NCBI GenBank assembly: GCA_965214605.1
Contig: OZ243961.1
Span: 2,656,001-2,720,000 of the forward strand
Reading direction: 5' to 3'
From: an uncultured Candidatus Binatia bacterium
GTDB lineage: Bacteria; Desulfobacterota; Binatia; Bin18
Length of the DNA: 64,000 bases
Shown here: positions 35,577 through 39,011 of the stretch, piece by piece
Numbering within the stretch: the first letter of the stretch is position 1
Layout: every line of letters begins with the position of its first letter
Notes under the pieces: generated by a model
What the model was told of the DNA's origin: nothing
The model's input: the letters and a program-made list of their open reading frames with translations, nothing else
Databases searched by the model: none
Program-made: the position numbers and the translations under genes

Positions 35577-35697
35577 GGCTCGTCTTCTTTCGGCCGCTGT
35601 TGTGGAAAGCGATCGCTCATCTTTTCAGCTCATGAGGATTGCTCATCACCGTTCTTGTCGTACGCCACCAAAAGGTGGTCGATGATGATCACCGAGG

Positions 35698-36237
35698 CTA
35701 CATGAGATCATCGGTCCCCTTTTCGTCCTGGGGCGGACTGCCCAACAGCTGTTCGGCAAACTCGCACGAATATCCCCGCCGCACCAGCAGGCGATACGCC
35801 CGGGCATAGGTCTGCGCTTGTTGTAGCCCGTCCGCAGGAAAGCGGCTAGACAGCAGCCTGCGGGCGGCGTCGAGGTCGAGGCCTGGTTGTCGGGCTGCAA
35901 GCGTTTGCGCAATCAGGGCGGAATCAAGATGGTGGCGGAGGAGTTTTTGCCGGATGGCGGCCGGGCCAAAGCCACGTGCCTGAAAGTGCTGGGTGAGCTC
36001 CGCGGCCAGGCGGGCATCGTTGAGATAGCCCTGGCGGGTGAGGCGGTCGACCGTTTGTACCACCGCGCGTGGGCTGAAGTGGCAGGGAGGAGCTCGGCCG
36101 GTCTGTGAGAGGGTTTGTACCACCGCGCGTGGGCTGAAGCCTTTGGTACGCATCTTTGCCGCTAAGCCGGGCGCACTATAGGCTCGTTGTCCCAGCAGAC
36201 GATAGGCGTAGTCGAGAGCGGTCAGAGTGCCAGTCAT
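35698..36237 (-). CDS. recX: Regulatory protein RecX with 20-aa in-frame insertion
   Basis: AYRLLGQRAYS, GYLNDARLA, GP..IRQKL, LVRRGY; upstream of alaS. Confidence 0.88.
   Translation of the reverse strand: MTGTLTALDYAYRLLGQRAYSAPGLAAKMRTKGFSPRAVVQTLSQTGRAPPCHFSPRAVVQTVDRLTRQGYLNDARLAAELTQHFQARGFGPAAIRQKLLRHHLDSALIAQTLAARQPGLDLDAARRLLSSRFPADGLQQAQTYARAYRLLVRRGYSCEFAEQLLGSPPQDEKGTDDLM
36053..36139 (+). repeat. 27-bp direct repeat flanking a unique 33-bp insert inside recX
   Basis: GTTTGTACCACCGCGCGTGGGCTGAAG at 36053-36079 and 36113-36139. Confidence 0.95.
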
Positions 36238-36239
36238 GG

Positions 36240-37373
36240 TTATTTACGAAGACGCCGACGCTGTGTTCCAGTCGCCGAATCGTAGTCGATATAATCGCGC
36301 GGCGAAAAATATTCCCGCGCTCCCCGGGTGGCTAAATCTTGCAGCACGGAGTCGGCCAAGACCAGGGCGACCATGGCTTCGGCAATTGGGACGCCCCGAA
36401 TTGCCACGCACGGATCGTGTCGCCCGCGCGTGGCAACCGTGCGTGGCCGAAAGTTCACATCAATCGTGTTTTTGTCCTGGGGGATAGACGAAGTGGGTTT
36501 GACGACCAACCGCACGACGATCGGCGCGCCAGAGGAAATGCCGCCCAGCGTCCCGCCATGGTTATTGGTGACAAATCCCGTTGGGGATAATGCGTCGTTC
36601 ATCTGGCTCCCGCGCATGGCGGCAGCGGCAAATCCAGCCCCAAATTCGACCCCCTTGACCGCCGGGATGGACATTAGGGCTGTGGCAAGCTCAGCGTCGA
36701 GTTTGCCAAAAACCGGCTCGCCCAGCCCCGGCGGAACGCCTTCGGCCATGACCTCGATTATGCCCCCCACAGAATCCCGCTCTTTTCTGGCCTGTTCGAC
36801 CTCGGCGCGCATGGCAGCCACACTGTCCGGGTCAAGGCTGCGCAGCTCATTGTCTTCGACCGCGTCCCAAATACGGCTGTTGGCCCGCACCTTTCCGACC
36901 TGAATGACGCCGCCCCTAATGCGAATCCCGAAATGCGCCAGCAGCTGCTTGGCTAGGGCACCGGCAAACACCCGCCCCACGGATTCTCTGACCGAAGCCC
37001 TACCACCCCCGCGATGGTCCCGGTGGCCATACTTGGCAAAATAGGTAAAGTCGGCGTGTCCGGGGCGGAACAGCTGGGCGAGTTCGTCATAGTCTTTGGA
37101 GCGCATATCGGTGTTGAAGACCATGGCCATCAGCGGGGTCCCGGTGGTCTTGCCCGCAAACACGCCCGAGAAGATCTCAATCTTGTCCCCCTCTTTGCGT
37201 TGGGTCACCAGTTTTGATTGCCCAGGACGGCGACGGTCCATCTCGTGTTGAATGGCTTCGAGGTCAAGCGCAAAGTCGGCCGGAAAACCATCCACAACAA
37301 CGCCAACGCCTCTCCCGTGGCTCTCACCAAAGGTCGTCACGCGTAATACGGTTCCAAACGTGTTCCCTGGCAT
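36240..37373 (-). CDS. aroC: Chorismate synthase
   Basis: FGESHG, RRRPGQ, RPGHAD, GGGRAS.RE, KPTSSI, GRHDPC. Confidence 0.98.
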   Translation of the reverse strand: MPGNTFGTVLRVTTFGESHGRGVGVVVDGFPADFALDLEAIQHEMDRRRPGQSKLVTQRKEGDKIEIFSGVFAGKTTGTPLMAMVFNTDMRSKDYDELAQLFRPGHADFTYFAKYGHRDHRGGGRASVRESVGRVFAGALAKQLLAHFGIRIRGGVIQVGKVRANSRIWDAVEDNELRSLDPDSVAAMRAEVEQARKERDSVGGIIEVMAEGVPPGLGEPVFGKLDAELATALMSIPAVKGVEFGAGFAAAAMRGSQMNDALSPTGFVTNNHGGTLGGISSGAPIVVRLVVKPTSSIPQDKNTIDVNFRPRTVATRGRHDPCVAIRGVPIAEAMVALVLADSVLQDLATRGAREYFSPRDYIDYDSATGTQRRRLRK

Positions 37374-38921: not shown

Positions 38922-39011
38922 CTTCTTCCCGGGCGCATGGAGAATCATCGTTTATATGAGCGCATGGCTAATCCACAAACAGCTTCTTCCTGGGCGCATG
39001 GAGAATCATCG
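38922..39011 (+). CRISPR. Possible orphan single-spacer CRISPR-like unit (29-bp repeat, 32-bp spacer)
   Basis: CTTCTTCC(C/T)GGGCGCATGGAGAATCATCG at 38922-38950 and 38983-39011, period 61. The repeat is directly visible; CRISPR identity is not established. Confidence 0.35.

Follow-up and report, generated by a model that had tools for sequence, protein, structure and literature searches.

Why does a recX gene of an uncultured Binatia bacterium carry 60 bp that most of its relatives lack, arranged as a 33-bp sequence between two identical 27-bp pieces of the gene itself? The gene lies in a stretch of 64,000 nucleotides, hereafter the window, which corresponds to C1:2656001-2720000 of the assembly G000 (4.37 Mb, nine contigs); positions given without a contig name are those of the window. 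An earlier note on this stretch had proposed that the additional DNA is a spacer of a CRISPR system, integrated off target by the adaptation enzymes. We followed up this proposal by searching for the empty site in relatives and in public assemblies, for the system that might be responsible, for similar units elsewhere in the genome and for the source of the insert. It is highly probable that the unit in recX is an off-target integration by the type I-E Cas1-Cas2 complex of the host.

The unit comprises two direct repeats of 27 nt, GTTTGTACCACCGCGCGTGGGCTGAAG, which are 100% identical and start 60 nt from each other, and a 33-nt insert between them (Table 1). Its edges are sharp, in that the outer neighbouring bases of both copies mismatch on either side, and the duplication is therefore exactly 27 nt long. 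Neither the repeat pair nor the insert recurs at any other locus of the assembly. The product of the interrupted gene, 179 residues in length, exceeds the Pfam cut-off of 26 for RecX_HTH1 (34.9 bits) and RecX_HTH2 (42.4 bits), and we regard it as a member of the RecX three-helix domain family, with RecX_HTH3 at 23.5 bits, just under the same cut-off. It is 73-77% identical to the orthologues of five congeners and 63% identical to that of a sixth, G002. The insertion adds 20 codons in frame and doubles the peptide FSPRAVVQT. On these points, namely an exact 27-bp duplication around an unrelated 33-bp insert, a net gain of 60 bp in frame and a duplicated peptide, the earlier note had read the locus correctly.

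The nature of the insert bears on the simplest alternative, which is that replication slippage or another tandem duplication of 60 bp was followed by divergence of its middle part. Tandem duplications are common, and a net length of 60 bp would keep the frame. However, the two 27-bp copies are identical, yet the 33 bp between them match the adjacent 33 nt, without gaps, at 9 of 33 positions on one side and 8 of 33 on the other. The best local alignment of the insert with the 550 nt on either side has a score of 10, compared with a mean of 10.28 for shuffled sequences, and 202 of 300 shuffles score equally well or better. The insert is thus not a diverged copy of the neighbouring recX sequence, an eventuality that the earlier note had envisaged. 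Furthermore, the existence of an empty allele with identical flanks, described below, leaves no time for divergence, and the congener G007 has an unrelated insert at the same site. Slippage followed by divergence is refuted by that allele together with the shuffle-level similarity to the flanks, and we give it next to no credit.

When did the insertion occur, and how widespread is it? A protein search over 41 genomes returned a match in 33 of them, and 17 relatives, seven congeners and ten members of the same family, were aligned. The site is empty, with a single copy and no insert, in 16 of the 17, the exception being G007. Eight more genome loci that span the site, at 27-45% identity, show a gap of 18-20 residues opposite the insertion, and the same gap is present in the 18 closest loci from metagenomes (40-51% identity); the metagenome matches beyond those 18 align too poorly for the state of the site to be called. 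The metagenome scan, in which the best match was at 51% identity, revealed neither a close relative nor an additional filled allele. A scan of genome contigs for further recX alleles returned two congeners.

The empty allele is also present in contigs of three public runs, X1 (study P1, 2019), X4 and X6 (study P2, 2024 and 2025). These contigs omit exactly positions 36053-36112, with a joint that is ambiguous over 27 nt, and they show no second difference within the covered parts of the interval 35600-36600. X4 and X6 cover this interval completely, and X1 covers about 870 of its 1001 bases in three contigs, with 36348-36413 uncovered. The filled allele is found, again with no differences, in a contig of X3 (P2, 2024; a Logan assembly of 14,626 bases at a depth of 13.7), which is possibly the source run of the window. 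The insertion is real, recent and polymorphic among samples of one population. It must be recent and not fixed because an empty allele with identical flanks occurs in contigs of that population; as the evidence consists of contigs, it speaks of the presence of the alleles and not of their frequencies within a sample. The earlier note had anticipated an empty site in close relatives and had advised a check of read support, and public assemblies turn out to contain both alleles. Its proposal of a naturally fixed ectopic spacer acquisition is supported as regards the ectopic acquisition, but not as regards fixation, given the empty allele in X1, X4 and X6.

These data leave hardly any room for an assembly or sequencing artefact. 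The window does stem from a metagenome-assembled genome, and X3 might not be independent of it. Nevertheless, the X3 contig was built separately and reproduces the filled allele without a difference, units of the same geometry occur throughout the genome, two of which face clean empty sites in congeners, and a unit of this kind occupies the corresponding site of G007, which was assembled independently. As for the direction of the change, contigs alone give no polarity to the alleles, and recombination between the 27-bp copies would, by deletion, yield exactly the empty allele of X1, X4 and X6. The filled allele could then be ancestral and the event old, the unit being in the course of loss. 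This is very unlikely, considering that the site is single-copy in the six other congeners, in the ten family members and in those more distant relatives that align comparably, that the two copies remain 100% identical and that the covered flanks are the same in both alleles. In addition, the unit of G007 differs from that of G000 both in its insert and in its duplication, which has diverged, so that it is not the same ancestral unit. Even if the filled allele were ancestral, only the timing would be altered, and an original integration would still be required.

The complete 3.62-Mb chromosome of G007 harbours its own unit at the same position of recX (G007:C1:2789716-2790228). The duplication, of 27 bp or of 28 if a shared G is counted, has G007's own diverged version of the site sequence. 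The insert, of 33 bp (or 32), is unrelated to that of G000 and introduces an in-frame TAA, and RecX of G007 is probably truncated after about 50 residues. We found no match to this insert elsewhere in G007, or in G000, G001, G005 and G006. The genome has 225 I-E repeats with a period of 61, at about 30 kb from recX. Judging from their sequences, the units of G000 and G007 are two independent events at one hot spot, because the G000 event is young, as its identical flanks indicate, and because each duplication follows the sequence of its own species.

Which enzyme might produce such units? G000 contains a complete type I-E operon, cas3-cse1-cse2-cas7-cas5-cas6e-cas1e-cas2e, adjoining an array of 97 repeats. 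Its adaptation module is apparently intact, with scores of 291.9 bits for Cas1e (cut-off 215.6) and 82.4 bits for Cas2e. The array (C1:2301763-2307656) is composed of 28-nt repeats, GGTTCCCCCGTACACGCGGGGATAGACC, and of spacers that are 33 nt long in 94 of 96 cases, and 70 of 94 canonical I-E spacers start with C or T. A small second I-E array is present at C1:2534815. The genome also has an array at C1:528.8k whose repeats measure 36 nt and whose spacers measure 30 nt, two arrays of 37-nt repeats and spacers of 34-52 nt, one of which is at C1:1687.7k, and a further short-period array at C1:612.8k. Among these systems, I-E alone fits an insert of 33 bp combined with a duplication of 27-28 bp: the recX insert has the length of almost all canonical I-E spacers, and its duplication of 27 bp compares with a repeat of 28 nt. 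The lineage thus possesses the type I system that the earlier note had presupposed. Two working I-E spacers of G000 are themselves self-targeting, with perfect matches in the chromosome (C1:3170433-3170465 and 3218149-3218181). Two spacers of the C1:1687.7k array also match the chromosome, one in full (C1:51258-51299) and the other partially (337619-337648).

The sequence of the recX site also links it to the I-E system. We read half-sites over 13-14 nt inward from each junction, on their own strand, for the recX unit and the eight sibling units listed in Table 1, i.e. nine units and 18 half-sites. CC is found at positions 8-9 in 14 of the 18 half-sites, and in 10 of 12 for the strict set with sharp boundaries, whereas the genome background is 0.083. 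Position by position, C8 is present in 16 half-sites, C9 in 15 and T3 in 11. In the true I-E repeat, both halves read GGT....CC. In recX, CC stands at 8-9 on either strand, and the two halves are 1 bp closer to each other than in the true repeat. The CC motif is predictable from the true repeat, and a matrix built from the halves of that repeat only represents an a priori test; with it, each of the nine sites ranks among the best 5% in the genome (combined p = 7.6e-12). With a leave-one-out matrix based on the other ectopic sites, the recX site is in the top 6.2e-5, and 266 positions have at least an equal score. The likeness resides in a few anchored bases and not in the whole repeat or its palindrome, because whole-site identity to the true repeat is modest, at 12-16 matches for the ectopic sites against a background of 10.35 +/- 1.6. 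Accordingly, the resemblance to an I-E repeat that the earlier note saw in the recX site holds for the half-site motif, but its emphasis on the palindrome does not fit the modest overall match. Duplications of 27, 28 and 29 bp all keep CC at 8-9 from either end. For the few sites available, this constancy suggests that either half-site sets the position of its own cut, as if two rulers were used.

Is recX an isolated case? We scanned the genome outside the arrays for exact, non-tandem direct repeats of at least 24 nt, which yielded 143 events at spacings of 30-400, or about 0.4 per spacing. Relative to this average, there are peaks at 61 (5 events), at 73 (6) and at 76-78 (8), which coincide with the repeat periods of the CRISPR arrays in this genome. 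The solitary units of G000 mirror the dimensions of three arrays, 28+33, about 37+35-41, and 36+30. About eight sibling units have the I-E geometry (Table 1). A 61-nt insertion shifts the frame, so that a gene at a 28+33 unit would be broken. The three-copy unit at C1:711165 resembles a small 'neo-array' that ectopic integration has extended more than once. The unit at C1:2694922, within the window, is doubtful: its insert resembles its own repeat, sharing GCGCATGG..AATC, and its sequence points to a degenerate tandem repeat of about 30 nt rather than to an integrated spacer.

The inserts of the sibling units are mutually unrelated, and many of them stem from the host itself. Five of nine reproduce, exactly or nearly so, a sequence found elsewhere in the chromosome, and among the canonical spacers 2 of 96 match it (Fisher p = 2.6e-5). 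Among the five 28+33 units (91695, 500128, 1399850, 4089123 and 3921609), four have inserts copied from elsewhere in the chromosome. The C1:125255 unit has an insert that reproduces the I-E leader exactly (C1:2307693-2307724, immediately upstream of the array), and the integrase seems in this case to have captured DNA beside its own array. Another sibling insert originates from the cas locus that adjoins a different array. An excess of self-derived inserts would be expected if ectopic units are not used in interference and thereby escape selection against self-targeting.

The sibling units also help to weigh another possibility, that insertion and duplication result from a process without Cas proteins, such as the activity of a small mobile element or a fixed-length repair, and that the CRISPR dimensions are coincidental. 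In its favour, a second class of solitary units in G000, with duplications of 35-42 nt, often totals exactly 73 nt with a varying partition (38+35 three times, 42+31 once), and neither a protospacer nor a protospacer-adjacent motif (PAM) is available for the recX insert. In contrast, the units of I-E geometry hold the 28+33 partition, the same as in 94 of 96 cases in the array, and show no constant sum with compensating parts. The motif anchored to their junctions is that of the true I-E repeat, both genomes hit in recX carry large I-E arrays, and as the inserts are mutually unrelated they are not copies of one element. A process of this sort therefore appears improbable, and we favour integration by the I-E Cas1-Cas2 complex.

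Several observations nonetheless weigh against this attribution. Over its whole length, the recX site is identical to the true repeat at only 14 of 27 positions, to be compared with the background given above, and about 3% of random 28-mers of the genome reach 14 matches. The duplication measures 27 bp, and the canonical one 28. The sites on which the CC motif is counted are also those on which it was noticed, and the counts include the doubtful unit C1:2694922. No protospacer that would indicate origin, PAM or orientation was found for the recX insert or for that of G007. As regards the recX insert, there is no exact match in its own genome, where blastn-short gave only chance matches of 17 nt; with up to three mismatches, it is found among 400 genomes of the class in G000 itself only. 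INPHARED phages gave no match, PLSDB plasmids two partial matches at chance level (E = 3), and IMG/VR no exact match. The flanks of the five self-derived sibling inserts and of three self-matching canonical spacers reveal no consistent PAM. In the first 400 kb of G007, which served as a sample, no further unit of I-E geometry was found. Lastly, we infer the identity of the enzyme, that is, the dependence of the recX event on Cas1-Cas2.

It is tempting to propose the following scenario. Carrying a 33-bp prespacer, a type I-E Cas1-Cas2 integrase of this bacterium would have performed two staggered strand-transfer attacks in recX, and not at the leader-proximal CRISPR repeat. Gap repair would then have duplicated the 27 bp between the attack points, giving rise to a solitary pseudo-repeat/spacer/pseudo-repeat unit of 60 bp. 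The site would be chosen through the T3 and CC8-9 half-site motif present on both strands, which is common to the recX site and the true 28-nt repeat. Should each half-site set the position of its own cut, the 1-bp shorter distance between the halves in recX would result in a duplication of 27 and not 28 bp. The unit would represent a by-product rather than a working CRISPR unit. Presumably, it persists because 60 bp preserve the reading frame of recX, at the price of a duplicated helix and 11 new residues.

What are the consequences for RecX, and could the unit function as a minimal array? AlphaFold predicts the 179-residue protein to be all-helical, with a mean predicted local distance difference test score (pLDDT) of 82.8. 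Block means are at least 84 for residues 61-170, and there is a dip for residues 31-60; in the region of the dip, the duplicated peptide forms two helices (36-46 and 56-68) and the loop joining them. This model indicates that the RecX fold may tolerate the insertion. As for CRISPR RNA (crRNA), the pseudo-repeat is predicted to form a 4-bp stem, and its -4.6 or -5.3 kcal/mol do not improve on the values of shuffled sequences, while the value for the true repeat is -13.3. The recX pseudo-repeat is therefore predicted to lack the Cas6e hairpin of a functional CRISPR array. It is unlikely that the unit is processed as a CRISPR repeat or yields a crRNA, because its pseudo-repeat is predicted to fold weakly.

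Off-target integration by the type I-E Cas1-Cas2 complex was reportedly found by Nivala, Shipman and Church in 2018 to give rise to 'neo-CRISPR' units. The recX unit belongs to this already known process (Nivala et al. 2018). Passages of papers that cite this work, including PMC6698737, report hundreds of rarer off-target events in Escherichia coli over-producing Cas1-Cas2, and passages of such papers mention 'circumstantial evidence' for natural cases in two other species. As far as those accounts go, the recX unit resembles such events by its insert of spacer length, its chromosomal duplication of repeat length, its repeat-like site and the presence of an I-E adaptation module in the genome. 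Unlike them, it is natural and arose under native expression in an uncultured Binatia bacterium, it is in frame inside a conserved housekeeping gene, and both alleles are present in the population. Other differences are that another species acquired an independent unit at this site, that the duplication is 27 and not 28 bp long, and that the genome contains siblings throughout, five of the nine inserts being self-derived.

Two other systems invite comparison. Off-target acquisition is among three proposed origins of isolated mini-arrays (Shmakov et al. 2020, as conveyed in a part of PMC13142298). Like an orphan mini-array of the type outlined there, the recX unit has two repeats and one spacer far from cas genes, but its 'repeats' are recX coding sequence and not copies of a CRISPR repeat. 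In vitro, what the off-targets of Pyrococcus furiosus Cas1-Cas2 have in common is a small number of bases whose positions are conserved at a set distance from both junctions, according to a section of PMC6698737. The half-site motif of G000 is similarly anchored to the junctions. The P. furiosus data concern, in the same section, another subtype, a 30-bp spacing and plasmid targets in vitro, whereas the rule of T3 and CC8-9 in G000 comes from natural chromosomal events. In vivo work on motifs in the middle of the repeat, which PMC6698737 summarises in part, agrees with the notion of two cuts positioned separately, each by its own half-site.

What this locus adds to the known process is the presence of both alleles in one population, the recurrence at the same site in another species, the siblings with self-derived inserts and a target rule that can be read from the sites. 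It indicates that, in nature, housekeeping genes can be altered or broken by CRISPR adaptation, the stop codon in recX of G007 being a case in point. It also provides a natural test bed for the way in which the two cuts are measured, with 27 vs 28 bp, and for the share of self in naive acquisition before selection. One might go further and consider ectopic integration as a frequent, ongoing mutagenic side-effect of adaptation in these bacteria, at sites predictable from paired half-sites, with recX as a true hot spot and the units as an unselected, mostly self record of acquisition. We see even chances for this broader view. If it is true, the cost of adaptation and its raw specificity would be directly measurable in wild populations.

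Table 1. Features of the recX unit and of the sibling units of I-E geometry in G000; positions are those of the window unless a contig is named.
Feature	Position	Strand	Evidence or remark
recX ORF (open reading frame) including the 20-residue in-frame insertion	35698..36237	-	ORF list, Pfam; relatives about 20 residues shorter here
Left copy of the 27-bp target-site duplication (pseudo-repeat)	36053..36079	.	Exact direct repeat; single in empty alleles
33-bp insert (putative ectopic spacer)	36080..36112	.	I-E spacer length; unique in the genome; unrelated to the flanks
Right copy of the 27-bp target-site duplication	36113..36139	.	100% identical to 36053-36079
Clean 28+33 unit	C1:91695		61-nt insertion relative to 2 of 4 matching congeners (those 2 span the site)
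Clean 28+33 unit	C1:4089123		61-nt insertion confirmed relative to 4 of 4 matching congeners
Clean 28+33 unit	C1:500128		No match in 5 congeners
Clean 28+33 unit	C1:1399850		Region not conserved across the site in congeners
28 nt (one end mismatch) + 33 unit	C1:3921609		
Three-copy mini-array, C-rich pseudo-repeat of 28-29 nt, inserts of 33 and 32 nt	C1:711165-711320		Degenerate fourth copy downstream
Older unit, 29 nt (one mismatch) + 32	C1:125255-125344		
Doubtful unit, 29-nt repeats (one mismatch) + 32-nt insert, period 61	38922-39011 (C1:2694922)		

Solitary units of other dimensions were also observed. The second class in G000 has inserts of 31-41 nt and spacings of 70-78; it includes C1:1880827 and C6:7607, and its dimensions are near those of both arrays with 37-nt repeats. 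Two inserts of this class copy chromosomal DNA. A solitary 36+30 unit at C1:4250365 has the dimensions of the C1:528.8k array, and its insert is an exact copy of C1:1462643-1462672. In the sampled 400 kb of G007, the only CRISPR-like solitary unit is one of 38+34 nt (G007:C1:244733-244842). Contig C4 carries the reverse complement of the C1:3068860 unit (C4:3868), and contig C5 carries a copy of the source of the C1:1967742 insert (C5:5574). These partial duplicates of C1 may be assembly variants or mobile DNA.

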